DNA from: a virus
Taxonomy: Duplodnaviria; Heunggongvirae; Uroviricota; Caudoviricetes
Length of the DNA stretch: 30,769 bases
Virus record (IMG/VR): IMGVR_UViG_2802429253_000014
Coordinates: 1-30,769 of that record
Reading direction: 5' to 3' (one strand)
Part shown: positions 3,806 to 25,357 of the stretch, piece after piece
Layout of the letters: the number at the start of each line of letters is the position of its first letter
Position numbering within the stretch: position 1 is the first letter of the stretch
Notes under the pieces: model-generated
Database searches by the model: none
Told to the model about the DNA's origin: nothing
Seen by the model: only the letters and a program-made list of their open reading frames with translations
Program-made: the position numbers and the translations under genes

Positions 3806-4030
3806 ATGCAGGACAACGTAGATTTTATTCAGGAACAACAGGCTGAATTACTGGAGCGCCAGATTAACGCGTCAAGGGTAAAACATTTCGGTGCTTCTGC
3901 GCTGGTTTGCGAAGAGTGTGACGCGCCAATACCTGCTGCCCGTCGTGCGGCTTATCCGTCAGCCACGCGTTGTGTTTCCTGTCAGTCAGTCTTTGAAGCA
4001 AAAAACAAACATTACCGGAGAACGGCATGA
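3806..4030 (+). CDS. TraR/DksA-family C4 zinc-finger protein (P2 orf82 position)
   Basis: 74 aa with CEEC...CVSC four-cysteine motif in typical TraR spacing. Confidence 0.7.
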   Translation: MQDNVDFIQEQQAELLERQINASRVKHFGASALVCEECDAPIPAARRAAYPSATRCVSCQSVFEAKNKHYRRTA

Positions 4031-4302
4031 GTATTCGTATTGAAATTGGCGAACGTTATGTCGTTACCAGTGACAGCTTTCAGTTTATTCTCCACGAGAA
4101 AAAGAGAGCGGAAAGCGGTAAAAACGCCGGTCAGGAATGGCTGGCGGTGGTTGGTTATTACCCGAAATTAAGCCAGCTCGTTTCCGGCATGATGCATCAC
4201 GATATTCTGACCGGAAGCGCAAAATCTTTTGCTGATTTAAACGCGCAGGTTGAGCAACTCAGCAAGCGTTGTTCAGAGGCTTTTGGCTCACATGGCCGTT
4301 AA
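4027..4302 (+). CDS. hypothetical protein (P2 orf83 position)
   Basis: 91-aa ORF immediately upstream of and overlapping the A start. Confidence 0.6.
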   Translation: MSIRIEIGERYVVTSDSFQFILHEKKRAESGKNAGQEWLAVVGYYPKLSQLVSGMMHHDILTGSAKSFADLNAQVEQLSKRCSEAFGSHGR

Positions 4303-6601
4303 AGCCTCCGGGCGTTTTGTCCCTCCGTCAGCATTTGCCGCAGGCACCGGTAAGGCGTTTACCGGTGCTTATGCATGGAACGCGCCACGCGAGGCCGTCG
4401 GGCGAGAAAGACCTCTTACACGTGACGAGATGCGTCAGGTGCAAGGTGTTTTATCCACGATTAACCGCCTGCCTTACTTTTTGCGCTCGCTGTTTACTTC
4501 ACGCTATGACTACATCCGGCGCAATAAAAGCCCGGTGCACGGGTTTTATTTTCTCACATCCACTTTTCAGCGTCGTTTATGGCCGCGCATTGAGCGTGTG
4601 AATCAGCGCCATGAAATGAACACCGACGCGTCGTTGCTGTTTCTGGCAGAGCGTGACCATTATGCGCGTCTGCCGGGGATGAATGACAAGGAGCTGAAAA
4701 AGTTTGCCGCCCGTATCTCATCGCAGCTTTTCATGATGTATGAGGAACTCTGCGATGCCTGGGTGGATGCGCATGGCGAAAAAGAATCGCTGTTTACGGA
4801 TGAGGCGCAGGATCATCTGTATGGTCATGTTGCTGGCGCTGCACGTGCTTTCAATATTTCCCCGCTCTACTGGAAAAAATACCGTAAAGGACAGATAACC
4901 ACGAGGCAGGCATATTCTGCCATTGCCCGTCTGTTTAACGATGAGTGGTGGACTCATCAGCTTAAAGGCCAGCGTATGCGCTGGCATGAGGCGTTACTGA
5001 TTGCTGTCGGGGAGGTGAATAAAGACCGTTCTCCTTATGCCAGTAAACATGCCATTCGTGATGTACGTGCACGCCGCCAGGCAAATCTGGAATTTCTTAA
5101 ATCGTGTGACCTTGAAAACAGGGAAACCGGCGAGCGCATCGACCTTATCAGTAAGGTGATGGGCAGTATTTCTAATCCTGAAATTCGCCGGATGGAGCTG
5201 ATGAACACCATCGCCGGTATTGAGCGTTACGCCGCCGCAGAGGGTGATGTGGGGATGTTTATCACGCTGACCGCGCCGTCAAAGTATCATCCGACACGTC
5301 AGGTCAGAAAAGGCGAAAGTAAAACCGTCCAGCTAAATCACGGCTGGAATGATGAGGCATTTAATCCAAAGGATGCGCAGCGTTATCTCTGCCGTATCTG
5401 GAGCCTGATGCGCACGGCATTCAAGGATAATGATTTACAGGTCTACGGTTTGCGAGTCGTCGAGCCACACCACGACGGAACGCCGCACTGGCATATGATG
5501 CTTTTTTGTAATCCACGCCAGCGTAACCAGATTATCGAAATCATGCGTCGCTATGCGCTCAAAGAGGATGGCGACGAAAGAGGAGCCGCGCGAAACCGTT
5601 TTCAGGCGAAACACCTTAACCGGGGTGGTGCTGCGGGGTATATCGCGAAATACATCTCAAAAAATATCGACGGATATGCACTGGATGGTCAGCTCGATAA
5701 TGATACCGGCAGACCGCTGAAAGACACTGCCGCGGCTGTTACCGCATGGGCGTCAACGTGGCGCATCCCGCAATTTAAAACGGTTGGTCTGCCGACAATG
5801 GGGGCTTACCGTGAACTACGCAAATTGCCGCGCGGCGTCAGCATTGCTGATGAGTTTGACGAGCGCGTCGAGGCTGCACGCGCCGCCGCAGACAGTGGTG
5901 ATTTTGCGTTGTATATCAGCGCGCAGGGCGGGGCAAATGTCCCGCGCGATAGTCAGACTGTCAGGGTTGCCCGTAGTCCGTCGGATGACGTCAACGAATA
6001 CGAGGAGGAAGTCGAGAGAGTGGTCGGCATTTACGCGCCGCATCTCGGCGCGCGTCATATTCATATCACCAGAACGACGGACTGGCGCATTGTGCCGAAA
6101 GTTCCGGTCGTTGAGCCTTTGACTTTAAAAAGCGGCATCGCCGCGCCTCGGAGTCCTGTCAATAACTGTGGAAAGCTCACCGGTGGTGATACTTCGTTAC
6201 CGGCTCCCACACCTTCTGAGCACGCCGCAGCAGTGCTTAATCTGGTTGATGACGGTGTTATTGAATGGAATGAACCGGAGGTCGTGAGGGCGCTCAGGGG
6301 CGCATTAAAACACGGGCTGAGAACACCAAATCGTCAGCAGAGAAACGGAAGCCCGTTAAAACCGCATGAAATAGCGCCATCGGCCAGACTGACCCGGTCG
6401 GAACGATTGCAAATTACCCGTATCCGCGTTGATCTTGCTCAGAACGGTATCAGGCCTCAGCGATGGGAGCTTGAGGCGCTGGCGCGTGGGGCGACCGTAA
6501 ATTATGACGGGAAACAATTCACGTATCCGGTTGCTGATGAGTGGCCGGGATTTTTACAAACAGAAATTGTTTTTGGGATTAATAAGTTATCTCTAAGCTA
6601 A
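4292..6601 (+). CDS. A: replication initiation protein A (rolling-circle nickase)
   Basis: About 769 aa; near-identical to P2 gpA by recall (MAVKASGRFVPPSAFAAGTGKAF..., HWHMMLF HUH-type motif, ...AAGYIAKYISKN tyrosine region). Start chosen at ATG 4292, matching the P2 N-terminus, rather than the ORF-track start at 4250. Confidence 0.9.
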   Translation: MAVKASGRFVPPSAFAAGTGKAFTGAYAWNAPREAVGRERPLTRDEMRQVQGVLSTINRLPYFLRSLFTSRYDYIRRNKSPVHGFYFLTSTFQRRLWPRIERVNQRHEMNTDASLLFLAERDHYARLPGMNDKELKKFAARISSQLFMMYEELCDAWVDAHGEKESLFTDEAQDHLYGHVAGAARAFNISPLYWKKYRKGQITTRQAYSAIARLFNDEWWTHQLKGQRMRWHEALLIAVGEVNKDRSPYASKHAIRDVRARRQANLEFLKSCDLENRETGERIDLISKVMGSISNPEIRRMELMNTIAGIERYAAAEGDVGMFITLTAPSKYHPTRQVRKGESKTVQLNHGWNDEAFNPKDAQRYLCRIWSLMRTAFKDNDLQVYGLRVVEPHHDGTPHWHMMLFCNPRQRNQIIEIMRRYALKEDGDERGAARNRFQAKHLNRGGAAGYIAKYISKNIDGYALDGQLDNDTGRPLKDTAAAVTAWASTWRIPQFKTVGLPTMGAYRELRKLPRGVSIADEFDERVEAARAAADSGDFALYISAQGGANVPRDSQTVRVARSPSDDVNEYEEEVERVVGIYAPHLGARHIHITRTTDWRIVPKVPVVEPLTLKSGIAAPRSPVNNCGKLTGGDTSLPAPTPSEHAAAVLNLVDDGVIEWNEPEVVRALRGALKHGLRTPNRQQRNGSPLKPHEIAPSARLTRSERLQITRIRVDLAQNGIRPQRWELEALARGATVNYDGKQFTYPVADEWPGFLQTEIVFGINKLSLS

Positions 6602-6723
6602 GACGCTCAAAGCAAGAGATTATTTTACTGTACGTAGCCATCTGGAATTGTGGCTGTGTTAAAACGCTCGAGATTTTTTGGATATCCAGTTATACTCCGC
6701 TTAGAAATCATTCGGAGACTAAG

Positions 6724-7770
6724 ATGGCGGTAAAAGTTGTTGATCTTTTTTGCGGTGCTGGCGGTTTAACGCACGGCTTACATTTGGCCGGATTGGACGT
6801 TGTCGCAGGCATTGATTTAGAAGGTGAGTGTCGTGTTGCATACGAAAGCAATAATGATGCACTTTTTATTGAAAAAGATATATCTCTGGTGACAAAAGAT
6901 GAAATCGAAAATCTTTTTGAAGGGGCAAGTGTTAAAGTATTGGCCGGATGTGCACCTTGTCAGCCATTTTCTAAATATACTCAGGGAAAAGATAAAAAAA
7001 ATGATAAAAAGTGGCCGTTATTATATGAGTTTGAACGTTTAATAAAAGACACGAAACCAGAAATAGTTACAATGGAAAACGTTCCTGATGTGACAAAACA
7101 TTCTGTCTATGATGATTTTTATAATACCTTAATAGCATTGGGTTATTATGTTTGGGCAAATAAGATTGAATGTGTAGATTTTGAGGTTCCGCAAAACAGA
7201 GTGAGGCATGTATTACTCGCATCTAAATTTGCGCCGATTTCTCTGATGAAACCACAAACATCGGTAAAGCTGACAGTTAGGGATTGCATTGGTAATTTAC
7301 CTTCGATTGAAGCGGGACAAGCAGATCCAAAAGACCCTCTCCATAAGGCGAGTAGATTGAGTGAAATTAATCTCAAACGTATTCTACATTCAAAACCGGG
7401 GGGGACATGGAGGGATTGGCCTGCTGAATTAATCGCTTCATGTCATGCCAAGAAAAGTGGGCAGGGATATGCCAGTGTTTATGGTCGTATGTCTTGGGAT
7501 AAACCGAGTCCAACGATAACTACACTTTGTTATGGTTTTGGTAATGGACGTTTTGGTCATCCCGAGCAGCATCGTGCAATCTCACTTAGGGAAGCAGCAT
7601 TACTTCAAACGTTTCCTGTTACATATTCATTTACCCAACCGGGCGAGCCGATCAAAATGAAAAATGTCGGGCGTATGATAGGTAATGCTGTTCCTGTAAA
7701 CTTAGGTAAAGCGATTGGTCTTTCAATAGTACATCATTTGAAAGAGTTTCACCCCGCCGCTCTTAAATAA
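6724..7770 (+). CDS. DNA (cytosine-5) methyltransferase, Dcm-like
   Basis: 348 aa with canonical C5-MTase motifs in order: I FCGAGG, IV PCQPFS (catalytic Cys), VI ENV, VIII QNRVR, X GNAVP. GGAG Shine-Dalgarno; TATACT -10-like hexamer at 6691-6696. AT-rich relative to the phage core. Confidence 0.85.
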   Translation: MAVKVVDLFCGAGGLTHGLHLAGLDVVAGIDLEGECRVAYESNNDALFIEKDISLVTKDEIENLFEGASVKVLAGCAPCQPFSKYTQGKDKKNDKKWPLLYEFERLIKDTKPEIVTMENVPDVTKHSVYDDFYNTLIALGYYVWANKIECVDFEVPQNRVRHVLLASKFAPISLMKPQTSVKLTVRDCIGNLPSIEAGQADPKDPLHKASRLSEINLKRILHSKPGGTWRDWPAELIASCHAKKSGQGYASVYGRMSWDKPSPTITTLCYGFGNGRFGHPEQHRAISLREAALLQTFPVTYSFTQPGEPIKMKNVGRMIGNAVPVNLGKAIGLSIVHHLKEFHPAALK

Positions 7771-8468
7771 GCCTGAGTATCAAGATAAGTTTGTATATTT
7801 TCAAGGATGCAGTTGAGATAATGAAAAACTTCATCCTTCATTTCTGTTAGTGTATCAATAGATGTATCTCTGCCTTTGTTTCTAAATGATTCAGAACCAT
7901 GAGCAAGGTCGTTTCTGGCCTTTTTTATTGGAAGTAAATTGCAACCATTTCGCGTTATTTCTGAATCTGTATCTGCTGAGAAGCCATATTTTTCAGCGAC
8001 TTCTCTAATTTTTCTAGCATCAACATTTCCAGAAAATAACGGATTTTTATTTGATTGGATAAGTTTTTTGTGAGCGTTTAGCCACTCTTTAAATATAACT
8101 TTTGCAATGTTCCCTTGTGAGAAATCTATTTTCCCATTTGGTGATTGTAAACTATGAAATGCTACTCTTGTAAGGTTTTCATTTACAGTATCTGCACATA
8201 ATGATTCATTAGACATTAAAACATTATGAATGTCTTCTATTGCATTGGAAATGGTTGCTTCAATGAGATTGTACAATATAATAAATGCATTAGCCTTTAA
8301 AATATGAGTCATATCAATATCAATGGGTTGTTGTATAGGCGCATCGCTTGTATTCTCTTTATAGACTAGAGATGGTTTTTTGTTTATTAGTAACTGAATG
8401 AATGAGAAGTATTCATTAATATCTTGCATTCTTTCTTGGAAAAGAATTTTACTTGTCATCTCCTCCAT
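7749..8468 (-). CDS. HEPN-motif protein (predicted RNase-type effector)
   Basis: 239 aa; C-terminal ...KKARNDLAHGSESF... fits the HEPN Rx4-6H signature (R185, H190, coded at 7899-7916). Co-oriented 10 bp downstream of the DUF262 gene; very AT-rich. Family assignment is tentative and resembles what I recall as MAE_28990-type HEPN proteins. Confidence 0.65.
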   Translation of the reverse strand: MEEMTSKILFQERMQDINEYFSFIQLLINKKPSLVYKENTSDAPIQQPIDIDMTHILKANAFIILYNLIEATISNAIEDIHNVLMSNESLCADTVNENLTRVAFHSLQSPNGKIDFSQGNIAKVIFKEWLNAHKKLIQSNKNPLFSGNVDARKIREVAEKYGFSADTDSEITRNGCNLLPIKKARNDLAHGSESFRNKGRDTSIDTLTEMKDEVFHYLNCILENIQTYLDTQAYLRAAG

Positions 8469-8478
8469 TTACTTGGCC

Positions 8479-9630
8479 TCACTCCATATTTTCATCTTCA
8501 TCTTCATTTTCATCTTCGTCGACAATATTTTCTGGAATGTCTTTCCCAAGCAACTTGTTTTTTACATATTCAATGCGTGCTTTAACTTTGGGTTTAGAGT
8601 TGCTGGCATCTGAACGTGTGTGCGTGATAAACTCTTTCGAGTTGATCCAGTCATCAATATTTTTAGGAACTAAATTGGGTTCTTCCTCTAGTGCTAATGT
8701 TGCACCGACGGCAAGAGCTTCGAAACGAATCCTAGGAACAGTGGTGGCGTTTTTCACCTTTCTGAAACCATTTGGGAAATGTGTATTAATGAATTGGCAC
8801 ATTTTATGAAATTTTTCCGCCAGCATAGCTGCGTTTTCATCTGTATATTCGGCATTTTTACGTTTTAAATAGGTTGTAAGAAATTCATCAACGCTTTTTC
8901 TGAAATCAAGATATTCTTCAGTGTAGGCAAAGTAGCGTAGTGCCAATTCTGGATATTCAGAGCGACGTTTTCTTGCATCTCCCAAAGGACAGATGCTATG
9001 AAATAGAGGATCTTCGGAAATTTCATTGATAAATGCAAGGAATGGCCCATCATGGCTACCTTGCCGTTGTTCCATTGTTGTTAGTTTTTTTCCGCCAGTA
9101 TTCAGACGGTCAAAAATTTCCCTTCTTGTCTCTTCGTCACAATGTTCTGTAAGTTCAATCATTCGAATAGTTTTTCTATCAAAACGTAGGCGACGGGGAG
9201 TACTGAAATCAGAATATTTAAAACCATTGGCTGTGACTAATTTCTGCAGGCCTTCAAGAGTTAGTTTGTTATTGGTAAATTGGTGTAGGGTTCTTATTCG
9301 TTGGCTACCGTCAACAATTTCAAGTCTACCTTCATTTTCACCTGAACCAATATCGGCAACGAATATGTAAGGTATAGGAAGATTTAAAAGCAGAGATTCA
9401 ATGAAACGGGATTTTTGCTTGTTGTTCCAGATAAACTCCCTTTGGTAGTCAGGTATAAAAAGCTCTGCCTCATCTTCTTCAAGACCATTCTGAAATTTGT
9501 CCACAATAACACTTATCGGGAACTCACGTATTTCATGGTCAGTGATTTTTTGCATTTCAACTATGCTTTGATCTAAAAGCTCCTTTTCTTCTTTAGTTTT
9601 TGGGGTATGTTCTGCTTTTTTTCTCGCCAT
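8479..9630 (-). CDS. DUF262 (ParB/Srx-like, GmrS-type N-terminal domain) protein with poly-acidic C-terminal tail
   Basis: 383 aa; IPDYQREFIW, VDGSQR and FDRLNTGGKKL match the DUF262 signature (IPxYQRxxxW / DGQQR / RLNxxG). No His-Me/HNH (DUF1524) motifs found. C-terminus VDEDENEDEDENME. Confidence 0.8.
   Translation of the reverse strand: MARKKAEHTPKTKEEKELLDQSIVEMQKITDHEIREFPISVIVDKFQNGLEEDEAELFIPDYQREFIWNNKQKSRFIESLLLNLPIPYIFVADIGSGENEGRLEIVDGSQRIRTLHQFTNNKLTLEGLQKLVTANGFKYSDFSTPRRLRFDRKTIRMIELTEHCDEETRREIFDRLNTGGKKLTTMEQRQGSHDGPFLAFINEISEDPLFHSICPLGDARKRRSEYPELALRYFAYTEEYLDFRKSVDEFLTTYLKRKNAEYTDENAAMLAEKFHKMCQFINTHFPNGFRKVKNATTVPRIRFEALAVGATLALEEEPNLVPKNIDDWINSKEFITHTRSDASNSKPKVKARIEYVKNKLLGKDIPENIVDEDENEDEDENME
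8482..8520. repeat. imperfect hexanucleotide tandem repeat (TTCATC-like) encoding the acidic tail
   Basis: Plus strand ttcatcttcatcttcattttcatcttcgtc; reverse complement encodes DEDENEDEDE. Confidence 0.6.
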
Positions 9631-9769
9631 GAGCTTATTATCCTACTATGCGTGTGATTGCATTAAATTGCATGTTAAACAAAAGCATAATCTATATCAG
9701 TCAATCAGCCAGTGGCAAGGTGTTGTGATTACAATGCAACTGCATTAGAACCGACTCATGAAGCGGGCG

Positions 9770-9788
9770 GGCGAGGCGGGGAAAGCAC
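9770..9788. other. cos: cos site (19-nt P2 cohesive end sequence GGCGAGGCGGGGAAAGCAC)
   Basis: Exact match to the P2 cohesive-end sequence as I recall it, located just upstream of Q as in P2. Confidence 0.65.
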
Positions 9789-9930
9789 TGCGCGCTGGCG
9801 GTGGTGCTGATTTTATTTTTTCAGCGTCTCAGCGCGTCGTAATGGCGTTTAGATTGTGCGCCGGGGCGCTGGTGTGTCTGCGGGCTGTTTTGCGCGGAGG
9901 TGAGCGTGTGAGGGCGTGCTGACGGGGTGT

Positions 9931-9952
9931 AAAAAAGCCGCCCGCAGGCGGC
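9931..9952 (-). terminator. rho-independent terminator after Q (end of the P-Q operon)
   Basis: On the minus strand, GC hairpin GCCGCC-TGCG-GGCGGC followed by TTTTTT, starting 6 nt after the Q stop. Confidence 0.6.
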
Positions 9953-9957
9953 GATGT

Positions 9958-10992
9958 TCAGCCGTTGTCAGTGTCCAGTGAGTAGTTTTTAAAGCGGATG
10001 ACCTCCTGACCGAGCCAGCCGTTTATTTCCCGAATCCTGTCCTGTAGCGGGATAAGTTCATTGCGGACAAAGACCTTTGCCACTTTCTCAATATCACCCA
10101 GAGACCCGACGTTTTCCGGCTTGCCGCCCATCAACTGAAAGGGGATGCGGTGCGCATCCAGCAGGTCAGCGGCGCTGGCTTTTTTGATATTAAAAAAATC
10201 GTCCTTCGTCGCCACTTCACTGAGCGGGATAATTTTAATTCCGTCGGCTTTCCCCTGCGGGGCATAGAGAAACAGATTTTTAAAGTTATTGCGGCCTTTC
10301 GACTTAACCATGTTTTCGCGAAGCATTTCGATATCGTTGCGATCCTGCACGGCATCGGTGACGTACATGATGTATCCGGCATGTGCGCCGTTTTCGTAAT
10401 ACTTGCGGCGGAACAGCGTGGCCGACTCATTCAGCCAGGCAGAGTTAAGGGCGCTGAGATATTCCGGCAGGCCGTACAGCTCCTGATTAATATCCGGCTC
10501 CAGCAGGTGAAATACGGAGCCGGGCGCGAAAGGTGTCGGCTCGTTGAAGGACGGCACCCACCAGTAAACATCCTCCTCCACGCCACGGCGGGTATATTTT
10601 GCCGGTGAGGTTTCCAGTCTGATGACCTTACCGGTGGTGCTGTAACGCTTTTCCAGAAACGCATTACCGAACACCAGAAAATCCAGCACAAAGCGGCTGA
10701 AATCCTGCTGGGAAAGCCACGGGTGCGGGATAAACGTTGAAGCCAGAATATTGCGTTTGACGTAAATCGGTGAGCTGTGATGCACGGCAGCACGCAGGCT
10801 TTTTGCCAGACCGGTAAAGCTGATTGGTGGCTCATACCATCTGCCGTTACTGATGCATTCGACGTAATCCAGAATGTCACGGCGGTCGAGTACCGGCACC
10901 GGCTCACCAAAGGTGAATGCCTCCATTTTCGGAGCGCTGGCGGTGATTGTTTTTTCCGCAGGTTGCGGTGTTTTCCCTTTTTTCTTGCTCAT
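9958..10992 (-). CDS. Q: portal protein
   Basis: 344 aa, near-identical to P2 gpQ by recall (MSKKKGKTPQPA...); start overlaps the P stop (ATGA). Confidence 0.9.
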   Translation of the reverse strand: MSKKKGKTPQPAEKTITASAPKMEAFTFGEPVPVLDRRDILDYVECISNGRWYEPPISFTGLAKSLRAAVHHSSPIYVKRNILASTFIPHPWLSQQDFSRFVLDFLVFGNAFLEKRYSTTGKVIRLETSPAKYTRRGVEEDVYWWVPSFNEPTPFAPGSVFHLLEPDINQELYGLPEYLSALNSAWLNESATLFRRKYYENGAHAGYIMYVTDAVQDRNDIEMLRENMVKSKGRNNFKNLFLYAPQGKADGIKIIPLSEVATKDDFFNIKKASAADLLDAHRIPFQLMGGKPENVGSLGDIEKVAKVFVRNELIPLQDRIREINGWLGQEVIRFKNYSLDTDNG

Positions 10993-21636: not shown

Positions 21637-23460
21637 ATGAGCGCAAAGTTCCAAACCGTTATCACTACTGCCGGTGCAGCAAAGCTGGCAGCGGCGACTG
21701 CACCGGGAGGCAGGAAGGTCAACATTACCACGATGGCCGTCGGGGACGGTGGCGGTCAATTGCCGGTGCCGGATGCCGGACAGACAAAACTTGTTAATGA
21801 GGTCTGGCGACATGCCCTGAATAAAATCAGTCAGGACAATCGACACAGTAATTATATTATCGCAGAGCTGGTCATCCCGCCGGAGGTGGGCGGTTTCTGG
21901 ATGCGTGAGCTTGGCCTGTACGATGATGCGGGAACGTTAATTGCTGTGGCGAACATGGCCGAAAGTTATAAGCCCGCTCTTGCCGAAGGCTCAGGGCGTT
22001 CGCAGACCTGCCGCATGGTCATCATCGTCAGCAGTGTGGCCTCAGTGGATCTGACCATCGACACCACAACGGTGATGGCGACGCAGGATTACGTTGATGA
22101 CAAAATTGCAGAGCACGAACAGTCACGACGCCACCCGGACGCCTCACTGACTGCAAAAGGTTTTACTCAGTTAAGCAGCGCGACCAATAGTGAATCTGAA
22201 ACGCTGGCCGCAACGCCGAAAGCGGTAAAGGCCGCCTATGACCTTGCTAACGGGAAATATACTGCACAGGATGCCACTACAGCGCGAAAAGGCCTTGTTC
22301 AGCTCAGTAGCGCCATCAACAGCGATTCTGAAACGCTTGCGGCAACGCCAAAGGCGGTTAAGACAGCGTATGACCTTGCTAACGGGAAATACACTGCGCA
22401 GGACGCTACTACAGCGCGAAAAGGGCTTGTTCAGCTCAGTAATGACACCAACAGCGATTCTGAAACATTTGCCGCGACTCCGAAAGCGGTGAAAGCTGCC
22501 AATGATAATGCAAACAGACGCGTTCCTGACGGGCGTAAGGTCAATGGCAAACCACTGACCAATGATGTCAATGTTACATCGCAGGATATTTTTAACAGTC
22601 AGAGTATTGAGATTGGTGCAAACCAGAATCTGGATAATTACAAAACGCCGGGACTGTACCATCAGCCACTGAATGCGAATACAAGCGCATCGCTGAAATA
22701 CCCGGAGAATCTTGCAGGTACTCTGGTTGTGCTTAAAAATGCCGGAATAACACAAATTTACTATGTCTATAACACATCAAGAAGCTATACCCGCAGCCAG
22801 TATTCAACGGGGGGCTGGACATCATGGACACCGCAGGATTCATTTCCGGTAGGTGCTCCAATCCCGTGGCCTTCTGATTCAGTACCTACAGGCTATGCCC
22901 TGATGCTGGGGCAGACTTTTGATAAAGCAGCCTATCCCCTGCTTGCAGCAGCTTATCCGTCAGGGGTGATTCCAGATATGCGCGGCTGGACAATCAAGGG
23001 CAAACCCGCCAGTGGTCGCGCCGTATTATCACAGGAACAGGACGGCATTAAATCGCATACTCACAGCGCTAGTGCGTCAAATACGGATTTGGGAACGAAA
23101 ACAACCAGTTCGTTTGATTACGGAACAAAAACGGTCAGCACATTTAACCATGGGACGAAATCTACTAATAGCACGGGGAATCATGCTCACTCATTTACAG
23201 TATTAAATGAAGAGCAGAAAGACGGGCCAAACGCCGCGGGGGCGACGGGGAAATCAGTAGGAACAGTAACGACCTCCTCAGCCGGTAACCATGCCCATAC
23301 TGTCGATATTGGTCAGCATAACCACACCGTAGGTATTGGTGCCCATGCACATACTGTGGCATTGGGGGCGCACGGACACACCATCACGGTCAATGCTACG
23401 GGGAATTCAGAGAACACCGTAAAAAATATTGCATATAACTATATTGTGAGGCTTGCATAA
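21637..23460 (+). CDS. H: tail fibre protein H; P2-like N-terminus with a different C-terminal receptor-binding region
   Basis: 607 aa. The N-terminal ~230 aa match P2 gpH by recall. The downstream part has a tail-collar-like motif ([34 protein letters not shown]) and His-x-His repeats (GNHAH..., [31 protein letters not shown]) that I do not recall in P2 gpH. Confidence 0.88.
22159..22512 (+). repeat. about 2.7 copies of a 132-bp (44-aa) tandem repeat inside H
   Basis: Units at 22159-22290, 22291-22422 and a partial unit at 22423-~22512, encoding G(F/L)(T/V)QLS...[30 protein letters not shown]. Confidence 0.8.
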
Positions 23461-24038
23461 TGGCTTTCAGAATGAGTGCAGAAGCACAAACTATCCGCGT
23501 TTTCAATTTACTTGATGGAACCAATGAGTTTATTGGCGAAAGTGATGCATATATTCCGCCGCATACAGGTCTGCCTGCAAACAGTACAGATATTGCACCG
23601 CCTGATATTCCTGCTGGTTATGCAGCCGTTTTCAATGCAGATGAAATGAAATGGGAACTGATGGAAGACCATCGCGGAAAGACCGTCTATGAAACGAAAA
23701 CGGGAGCAGCCATTTATATTTCTGAACTTGGCGTATTACCTCCAGACGTGACAGCCATTTCCCCGGATGGGGATTATCAGAAATGGAACGGAAATGCGTG
23801 GGTGAATGATGAGAATGCAGAGCGTGATGCGCTTGTCAGAGCGGCTGACTCTCAGAAGAAAGAGCTGATTGCATATGCAGGTGAAATTATTGCCACTCTG
23901 CAGGATGCTGTCGATTTAGATATGGCTACCGAGGAAGAAAAGTTAAGCCTGACACACTGGAAAAAATACCGTGTGCTACTGAATCGCGTTCAGCCGGAAG
24001 ATGCTCCGGATATAGAATGGCCTGAACTACCGCAATAA
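23460..24038 (+). CDS. G: tail fibre assembly chaperone
   Basis: 192 aa, start overlaps the H stop; position of P2 gpG. Confidence 0.8.
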
Positions 24039-24042
24039 ACAC

Positions 24043-24070
24043 AGGCGGGCTGATTGCCCGCCTTTTCTTT
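24043..24070 (+). terminator. rho-independent terminator after G
   Basis: Hairpin AGGCGGGC-TGATT-GCCCGCCT followed by TTTCTTT, starting 5 nt after the G stop. Confidence 0.7.
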
Positions 24071-24166
24071 ATCTGTTGTTTCATCCACTGGCCAGCCAGG
24101 TCAAATAGCGTCTCATGCTCTGCACAACAGAAAATAGTTGCACCCATTAACCACGGAGTTAAACGG

Positions 24167-25357
24167 ATGAGTGACTATCATCACGGCGTGCAGGTGCTGG
24201 AGATTAACGACGGCACCCGCGTCATTTCCACCGTATCCACGGCCATTGTCGGCATGGTCTGCACGGCCAGCGATGCGGATGCGGAAACCTTCCCCCTCAA
24301 TAAACCGGTGCTGATTACCAATGTGCAGAGCGCAATTGCAAAGGCTGGTAAAAAAGGCACGCTGGCGGCGTCGTTGCAGGCCATCGCTGACCAGTCAAAA
24401 CCGGTCACCGTTGTCGTGCGTGTTGAAGACGGCACCGGCGACGACGAAGAAACGAAACTTGCGCAGACCGTTTCCAATATCATCGGCACTACCGACGAAA
24501 ATGGTCAGTACACCGGACTGAAAGCCCTGCTGGCGGCGGAGTCGGTAACCGGTGTTAAACCGTGTATCCTCGGTGTGCCGGGGCTGGATACCAAAGAGGT
24601 GGCTGTTGCACTGGCATCAGTCTGTCAGAAGCTGCGCGCTTTCGGGTATATCAGCGCATGGGGCTGTAAGACCATTTCCGAGGTGAAAGCCTACCGTCAG
24701 AATTTCAGCCAGCGTGAGCTGATGGTCATCTGGCCGGATTTCCTCGCATGGGATACGGTCACCAGTACCACCGCCACCGCGTATGCCACCGCCCGTGCGC
24801 TGGGTCTGCGCGCTAAAATCGACCAGGAGCAGGGCTGGCATAAAACACTGTCCAACGTTGGGGTGAACGGTGTTACCGGCATCAGCGCATCTGTATTCTG
24901 GGATTTGCAGGAGTCCGGCACCGATGCTGACCTGCTTAACGAGTCAGGCGTCACAACGCTGATTCGCCGTGACGGTTTCCGCTTCTGGGGTAACCGTACC
25001 TGCTCTGATGACCCGCTGTTCCTCTTTGAAAACTACACCCGCACCGCGCAGGTGCTGGCCGACACGATGGCTGAGGCGCACATGTGGGCGGTGGACAAGC
25101 CCATCACCGCAACGCTGATTCGCGACATCGTTGACGGCATCAATGCCAAATTCCGTGAGCTGAAAACAAACGGCTATATCGTGGATGCGACCTGCTGGTT
25201 CAGCGAAGAATCCAACGATGCGGAAACCCTCAAGGCCGGAAAACTGTATATCGACTACGACTATACCCCGGTGCCTCCTCTCGAAAACCTGACCCTGCGC
25301 CAGCGTATCACCGATAAATACCTGGCAAATCTGGTCACCTCGGTTAACAGCAATTAA
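24167..25357 (+). CDS. FI: contractile tail sheath protein
   Basis: 396 aa, P2 gpFI by recall (MSDYHHGVQVLEINDGTR...). Confidence 0.92.
   Translation: MSDYHHGVQVLEINDGTRVISTVSTAIVGMVCTASDADAETFPLNKPVLITNVQSAIAKAGKKGTLAASLQAIADQSKPVTVVVRVEDGTGDDEETKLAQTVSNIIGTTDENGQYTGLKALLAAESVTGVKPCILGVPGLDTKEVAVALASVCQKLRAFGYISAWGCKTISEVKAYRQNFSQRELMVIWPDFLAWDTVTSTTATAYATARALGLRAKIDQEQGWHKTLSNVGVNGVTGISASVFWDLQESGTDADLLNESGVTTLIRRDGFRFWGNRTCSDDPLFLFENYTRTAQVLADTMAEAHMWAVDKPITATLIRDIVDGINAKFRELKTNGYIVDATCWFSEESNDAETLKAGKLYIDYDYTPVPPLENLTLRQRITDKYLANLVTSVNSN

Follow-up and report, generated by a model that had tools for sequence, protein, structure and literature searches.

Between replication gene A and the cos site, P2-like prophages carry exchangeable anti-phage systems. 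This interval is described as a defence hotspot by Rousset 2022 and Vassallo 2022 (PMC9519451), and four validated systems have been located in it (PMC9519451). In the P2 reference the A-to-cos interval is occupied by orf91, tin and old, and the old-tin transcript is read leftward from near cos. The DNA considered here is a nearly complete P2-like prophage of 30,769 nucleotides (nt; IMG/VR record IMGVR_UViG_2802429253_000014), referred to below as the window, and all positions are those of the whole window. Its A-to-cos slot contains a triad of genes, for a C5 DNA cytosine methyltransferase (MTase), a HEPN protein and a DUF262 protein, which together make up a self-contained and horizontally mobile module that the prophage carries as cargo for lysogenic conversion. 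The module is most likely a defence or exclusion system, and we infer for it an anti-phage activity. In the preferred reading, to which a probability of roughly 0.6 is assigned, a DUF262 sensor coupled to DNA methylation would control a HEPN effector. The hotspot concept and each of the domains are known, and what is new is the way they are combined and how that combination has evolved; in its main text, Rousset 2022 mentions neither DUF262 nor methylases nor the triad.

The closest tested architecture is PD-T4-2 (Vassallo et al. 2022), a DUF262 and HEPN pair from Escherichia coli ECOR65 that confers protection from T4 on its native host and on K-12 (PMC9519451). Like the triad, PD-T4-2 is an operon of a DUF262 gene followed by a small HEPN gene (RiboL-PSP / MAE_28990 clade), lacks DUF1524 and resides on E. 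coli mobile DNA. However, the HEPN protein of the triad, with 239 amino acids (aa) against about 165 aa for PD-T4-2B, fails the PD-T4-2_B model, and the DUF262 protein scores higher on NsnA (5e-55, 185 bits, model positions 41-377 of 385) than on PD-T4-2_A (9.3e-35, 118 bits, model positions 55-357 of 363). Moreover, PD-T4-2 is active without a methylase, whereas the triad has an orthologous C5-MTase as a conserved third component. Judged by the PADLOC models and the HHpred table of those authors, the triad would be a remote, architectural relative of PD-T4-2 and not a member by sequence.

The GmrSD family (GmrSD, BrxU, SspE, GrwAB, DndI) shares with the triad a DUF262 protein whose N-terminal ParB/Srx NTPase domain bears the QR, DGxQR and FxxxN motifs and precedes a helical middle domain of the DNA-binding type. 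SspE and DndI, too, are each linked to a module for self-modification. In SspE, BrxU and GrwAB, DUF262 serves as a modification sensor gated by nucleoside triphosphatase (NTPase) activity (PMC10952713; PMC12137116). Unlike this family, the triad has no DUF1524 His-Me nuclease and carries a separate HEPN protein in the effector position. The modification also differs, being phosphorothioation for SspE and DndI and 5-methylcytosine (m5C) made by a single MTase for the triad, while GmrSD and BrxU lack a cognate methylase and are directed at modified DNA. Assignment as a GmrSD-type type IV enzyme was rejected because a C-terminal DUF1524 is absent. With Menshen (NsnABC) the triad shares a DUF262 protein that resembles NsnA along its full length and has the ParB-DUF262 and ParBDB layout of that proposed sensor, but the triad has HEPN and MTase genes in place of the NsnB ABC-ATPase and the NsnC inPIN-nuclease; membership of Menshen was rejected, NsnB and NsnC being absent among the three genes of the slot. 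PrrC-EcoprrI, a type Ic restriction-modification (RM) system, also ties a HEPN ribonuclease (RNase) to discrimination based on DNA modification, but PrrC brings its own ABC-ATPase and is embedded in hsdMSR, whereas the triad has a DUF262 NTPase and a stand-alone C5-MTase with no recognised endonuclease. Compared with the other cargos of P2 hotspot #1 (old, tin and the systems of Rousset 2022 and Vassallo 2022), the triad occupies the same slot and likewise has a leftward operon that starts near cos and is AT-rich, exchangeable and rare, but its gene content differs.

The same gene neighbourhood, a MAE_28990 HEPN with a ParB-like DUF262 and a DNA methylase, appears in Table 1 of Anantharaman et al. 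2013, but there it takes up a single line and was neither dissected nor examined by experiment, and a literature search found no experimental follow-up of that entry. Added here are the P2-hotspot context, the co-evolution statistics, an apparently fixed MTase specificity, a derived clade lacking the MTase and the structural assignment of DUF262 as a nuclease-less sensor. About 30% of complete E. coli genomes carry P2-like prophages. Since the A-to-cos slot ranks among the major stores of immunity genes, every uncharacterised cargo found there is a candidate new system.

The cargo slot and its three genes

The variable slot (6553-9730, 3.18 kb), delimited by base composition, homology breaks and differing cargos, has a G+C content (GC) of 0.371 against 0.537 in the remaining window, and the lowest value among 425 windows of the same size outside it was 0.455 (mean 0.541, standard deviation 0.036). 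GC at third codon positions (GC3) was 0.29, 0.24 and 0.30 for the cargo genes and 0.54, 0.63 and 0.71 for A, Q and P. The cargo therefore differs strongly from its flanks, and the foreign, AT-rich composition that the first-pass annotation had read from the sequence is borne out. Also confirmed is its placement of the island between A and cos, the interval that holds orf91, tin and old in P2. On the left, gene A (4250-6601, plus strand; PF05840 Phage_GPA, 2e-122; start at 4292 in the NCBI annotation) ends at 6601, and on the right the P2 cos site (9770-9788, plus strand), with the 19-nt cohesive end GGCGAGGCGGGGAAAGCAC, matches cosR of NC_001895 exactly. The limits of 6602-9769 first given for the island are accurate within about 50 nt, but the slot extends some 50 nt into gene A: the alignment with five other P2-like prophages breaks off at about 6552 and is taken up again at 9729-9741. 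Because of this left breakpoint, the last ~50 nt of gene A (6553-6601) belong to the variable slot, and about 16 C-terminal residues of protein A are exchanged along with the cargo.

The backbone is constant and the cargo varies, as had been proposed. Of 5426 complete E. coli genomes, 1541 contain the portal/cos flank at 95-99% identity, and the portal gene Q (9958-10992, minus strand; PF04860) is 95-99% identical in 1625 E. coli records. The cargo of the window is present in three complete E. coli genomes and a ~75%-identical variant of the triad in four more, all seven copies lying in the A-to-cos slot; with 7 of 1541 backbones carrying it, the triad is not a conserved backbone component. 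Five backbones sampled across the ranking had five different cargos, namely a methylase with an ATP-binding protein, a single hypothetical gene, ImmA/IrrE with hypotheticals, three hypotheticals, and a DEAD/DEAH helicase. The slot of E. coli A13 (positions 3842-6887 of locus L004) holds another C5-methyltransferase (phmmer 2e-57 to the MTase of the window) and a 670-aa 'ATP-binding protein', so that methylase cargos recur in the P2 slot with varying partners.

The three gene identities proposed at first, a C5-MTase, a HEPN protein and a DUF262 protein, were all confirmed by profile matches. The MTase gene (6724-7770, plus strand) encodes 348 aa and matches PF00145 (1.8e-54, profile positions 2-323 of 324), TIGR00675 (2.9e-36) and the PADLOC models DrmMII (1.9e-89) and MTase_II (5e-84); the 25 PADLOC matches listed for it, out of 60, were all methylase models. 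All catalytic motifs are readable (FCGAGG, I; PCQ, IV; ENV, VI; QNRVR, VIII; GNAVP, X), and the enzyme, complete by sequence, is predicted to be catalytically competent. Dcm was ruled out as its identity (NF007772 only 2e-4), and a sequence search of the PDB gave Dnmt1, M.HaeIII and M.HhaI as the nearest entries, which did not reveal the target motif.

The whole interval 6602-9769 is 99.7% identical to Peduovirus P24B2. In the P24B2 record (NC_049387 / LR595873, around 29780), seven G residues stand where the window (7391-7397) and three E. coli chromosomes have six, and the resulting frameshift splits the MTase into a 235-aa open reading frame and a fragment, while the DUF262 and HEPN genes are intact. 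Either the extra G is a homopolymer sequencing error or the phage is viable and null for the MTase; the second case would bear on whether the MTase is needed to tolerate the pair. A literature search on P24B2 yielded nothing relevant.

The HEPN gene (7749-8468, minus strand) starts 10 nt after the DUF262 stop and is convergent with the MTase gene, whose 3' end overlaps it by 22 nt. Its product of 239 aa belongs to the MAE_28990 family (PF18737 HEPN_MAE_28990, 7.6e-18; 65.9 bits against a cut-off of 26.8), has the HEPN-toxin fold and contains an invariant Rx4H motif (R185-N-D-L-A-H190). By analogy with its family, for which metal-independent endoRNase activity has precedent (PMC3710099), it is predicted to be an RNase effector acting on RNA. 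No PADLOC family matched the protein at E<=0.1, nor did any match three more distant MAE_28990-type partners at E<=0.001, and the PDB sequence search gave no match.

The DUF262 gene (8479-9630, minus strand) encodes 383 aa with a ParB/Srx-like NTPase domain (PF03235 GmrSD_N, 4.7e-28) and a helical domain of the DNA-binding type, and the product is NsnA-like. The motifs Y62-Q-R64, D107-G-S-Q-R111 and F173-x3-N177 are invariant among 25 homologues. Its fold matches those of BrxU, SspE and DndI minus the nuclease domain; no nuclease domain was found in it, and in particular no DUF1524 His-Me nuclease at the C-terminus. The protein is a predicted sensor of DNA or of its modification. PD-(D/E)xK, HNH, GIY-YIG and PLD domains were also sought in the proteins partnering the MTase, and none was found. 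A sequence search of the PDB with the DUF262 protein gave no match, and in PHROGs both it and the HEPN protein fall in families of unknown function. When the PADLOC check proposed at the outset was run, the MTase and DUF262 proteins were matched, the HEPN protein was not, and the v2.0.0 models do not call the triad as a system. The C-terminal tail of the DUF262 protein is acidic, and at 8491-8496 the window carries one more TTCATC unit than P24B2 and E. coli 2023CK-01509 do, which lengthens this Asp/Glu tail by two residues (383 against 381 aa); the difference looks like short tandem-repeat slippage.

Distribution and co-evolution of the triad

A survey of species-representative genomes (one per species; 185,579 species) yielded 407 related loci, the best 79 of which were analysed; for the HEPN protein, the protein collection held 548 relatives. 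With phages, plasmids and Tn7-like elements added to the 407 loci, the family to which the triad belongs is widespread. The DUF262 gene lies directly 5' of the HEPN gene, overlapping or abutting it, in 72/72 loci with the upstream region present, and the DUF262-then-HEPN order was found in all related loci with a readable DUF262 position; the DUF262-HEPN operon is obligatory. An orthologous MTase (phmmer 1e-104 to 1e-222; 49-89% identity) lies against the pair in 32 of the 71 loci away from contig edges, and over all triads the identity of the orthologues ranges from 47 to 89%. It is convergent with the pair in 28 of these 32 loci and upstream and co-directional in the other 4, and in 15 loci its 3' end overlaps the HEPN gene by 4 nt.

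These triads occur in diverse surroundings, including a non-phage site of a Vibrio cholerae chromosome, the P2 hotspots of Serratia, Buttiauxella and Kluyvera, and a Shewanella defence island, where the triad lies beside another restriction-modification system. In Achromobacter (L098, 4492-4869) a Vsr very-short-patch/mismatch-repair gene is located directly 5' of DUF262, which is consistent with active m5C methylation in the host. In Pseudomonas the triad is cargo of a Tn7-like transposon of the TnsC/TnsD/TnsE type (L099, 6978-8927), and here a 649-aa GHKL/MORC-type ATPase (HATPase_c_3, 1.1e-19) is inserted between the HEPN and MTase genes. WonAB and GrwAB were considered as matches for the V. 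cholerae triad and rejected, the former being unrelated (ABC-ATPase and PD-(D/E)xK) and the latter a DUF1524-containing type IV enzyme (PMC12137116).

More distant copies were found on a Klebsiella pneumoniae linear plasmid (NZ_CP069825, L105) and in nine Moraxella catarrhalis phages, Mcat32 (L104, 19323-22220) and its eight sisters, in which the proteins are annotated solely as hypothetical. They are deep-branching versions of the same triad, with DUF262, a MAE_28990 HEPN and a convergent C5-MTase. Compared with the window, the Klebsiella and Moraxella proteins are 71% and 59% identical for the MTase, 44% and 46% for DUF262, and 30% and 29% for HEPN. Because the MTase is so much better preserved than the HEPN protein, and no part of the MTase is better conserved than its target-recognition region, the sequences point to a probable single frozen methylation specificity combined with a fast-diverging effector.

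Among 34 triads, pairwise identities of the three proteins are correlated, with r of 0.94 for DUF262 and MTase, 0.86 for DUF262 and HEPN, and 0.85 for HEPN and MTase, and all three genes evolve under a ratio of non-synonymous to synonymous substitution rates (dN/dS) of 0.07-0.23. The three genes are one co-inherited and co-evolving module present well outside P2, and the first-pass annotation erred in calling them unrelated.

The convergent layout of methylase and putative nuclease, this co-inheritance and a fixed specificity of the kind typical of type II MTases would also fit the two-pronged restriction-modification scheme of Anantharaman et al. 2013. In it, DUF262 would be a DNase that cuts unmethylated DNA, the MTase would protect self, and HEPN would be a suicidal back-up RNase, restrained by the restriction component and freed when restriction fails. 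A weak match to the PADLOC 'REase_II' model (8.9e-07) and the Vsr gene adjoining the Achromobacter triad speak for it as well. However, the characterised DUF262 proteins (BrxU, SspE, GrwA) are NTPase sensors in which cleavage is performed by a separate His-Me domain, and that domain is absent here. Loss of the MTase beside an intact pair, as seen in loci L091 and L088 described below, would also be lethal under this scheme unless complemented in trans. We regard it as unlikely.

The module was found on prophages, plasmids and Tn7-like elements, and type II restriction-modification systems can behave as addiction modules. The triad might likewise be a selfish element, in which the methylase and a toxic pair stabilise the carrier by post-segregational killing and have little anti-phage role. 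This appears very improbable, given that the tested cargos of the slot are anti-phage, that PD-T4-2 protects its native host against T4, and that loss of the MTase has been tolerated in several lineages.

The methylase and the proposed mechanism

In the preferred scheme, the C5-MTase would place a fixed m5C mark on resident DNA, that of the host and of the prophage. The DUF262 protein, a putative sensor of the BrxU/SspE/NsnA type minus the nuclease, would read DNA together with its methylation state and control the co-translated HEPN protein; that the m5C mark is what DUF262 reads is what we infer. When foreign DNA enters, HEPN would cut RNA and the development of the phage would stop, probably at a cost to the infected cell. 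The mark may act in either of two ways: it may be protective, following restriction-modification logic, so that unmethylated sites trigger the system, or it may be licensing, following the logic of SspE, so that the self mark is required to arm the sensor. Li et al. 2025 independently speculated that, where solitary methylases lie beside DUF262 systems, ParB-DUF262 may thereby be directed at genomes that are not modified (PMC12065111).

The triad joins three well-studied parts, a C5-methylase, a HEPN protein and a DUF262 sensor of the GmrSD type minus the nuclease. Should the methylase gate the sensor, the triad would offer a simple three-gene model for turning the modification state of DNA into an RNA-level or abortive response, and would help to explain the function of DUF262 in PD-T4-2, Menshen and Dazbog. 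A bolder and rather doubtful version sees here an RM-like immunity without DNA cutting, in which a nuclease-less DUF262 NTPase reads its cognate m5C mark and activates a HEPN RNase, the specificity of the methylase being frozen across phyla while sensor and effector diversify under phage pressure. If true, it would couple epigenetic self-marking to an RNA-targeting abortive defence.

Several points weigh against a methylation-coupled sensor and effector. Twenty-two full-length DUF262-HEPN pairs have no adjacent MTase, as do 17 Microcoleus loci with a truncated DUF262. Locus L091 retains only the first 76 MTase residues beside an intact pair, and the MTase of P24B2 is frameshifted beside an intact pair, though this may be a homopolymer sequencing error. 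The pairs lacking the MTase are still under purifying selection, in relaxed form (dN/dS 0.11-0.72, median ~0.27), and PD-T4-2 was cloned and is active without any linked methylase (PMC9519451). In view of the pairs that lack an intact linked MTase, of the selection acting on them and of PD-T4-2, a strict restriction-modification dependency is doubtful, and the methylase is not universally required. The RNase activity of HEPN is assumed from its family, and a DNase role for the ParB-like domain is possible. Finally, the HEPN protein matches no PADLOC family and the pair fails PD-T4-2_B; its homology to a validated system is architectural and remote.

In the DUF262 tree most pairs without the MTase form a single cyanobacterial clade. 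The four MTase-less loci outside it are L055, a locus that keeps an MTase remnant and two that are cut by contig ends. The 22 full-length pairs and the 17 Microcoleus loci without the MTase have housekeeping genes around them, and an MTase-less pair also occurs on an E. coli IncF plasmid. Within the clade, a C-terminal relic of the MTase persists just after HEPN (L088). Given this tree and the MTase relics in the clade and in L091, the triad is the ancestral form, from which the MTase can be lost. Such loss, apparently tolerated in some lineages, leans to the licensing model or to complementation by an unlinked methylase. By analogy, the facts would fit better a mark that arms or tunes the sensor, as phosphorothioation arms that of SspE (PMC10952713).

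The 17 loci of Microcoleus and relatives (L021, L023, L031, L036, L040-L042, L045, L047-L050, L054, L056, L059, L071, L094) encode a DUF262 protein of only ~177 aa, which corresponds to the N-terminal ParB part, and a full or shortened HEPN protein, and occupy a conserved chromosomal site near clpB. They look like leftovers of the system that are decaying or have been re-purposed.

The persistence of many homologous pairs without a linked MTase, and the function of PD-T4-2 without one, would also be expected if the slot held two independent cargos. One would be a PD-T4-2-like abortive-infection pair, independent of modification or type IV-like, and the other an orphan methylase serving the phage or the host, for example in anti-restriction protection of P2 DNA or in epigenetic regulation. 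The MTase is encoded on the other strand and has a promoter region to itself, and phage-borne orphan C5-MTases are common (phrog_116). However, in unrelated contexts from at least four phyla an orthologous MTase directly abuts the pair, and the 3' ends often overlap; its identity is correlated with that of DUF262 at 0.94. Moreover, the pairs without it belong mostly to one derived clade which has an MTase relic and is under relaxed constraint. Two independent cargos are accordingly quite improbable.

Regulatory signals and other features of the window

Two weak sigma-70-like sites were found in the slot. One (6668-6696, plus strand, 9/12 matches) lies 28 nt 5' of the MTase start, and the other (9689-9718, minus strand) lies about 60 nt 5' of the DUF262 start and reads leftward from near cos, as does the old-tin promoter of P2, whose mRNA starts about 150 nt left of cosR. 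Promoter-like sites occur in the region at chance frequency (9 observed against 9.5 expected). No terminator was found between the convergent genes, and an Rfam scan of 6000-10200 (E<=0.1) gave no match. Scans for repeats and inverted repeats returned only short matches at chance level, and no att-like or transposon ends.

The second defence hotspot of P2 is empty in the window: a gap of 128 nt (24039-24166) separates the tail-fibre assembly gene G (23460-24038) from the sheath gene FI (24167-25357), the position of Z/fun in P2. A milder dip in GC (0.46-0.50) at 22250-24000 covers the 3' half of the tail-fibre gene H and gene G, and such a dip is the usual mark of an exchanged host-range cassette in P2-like phages.

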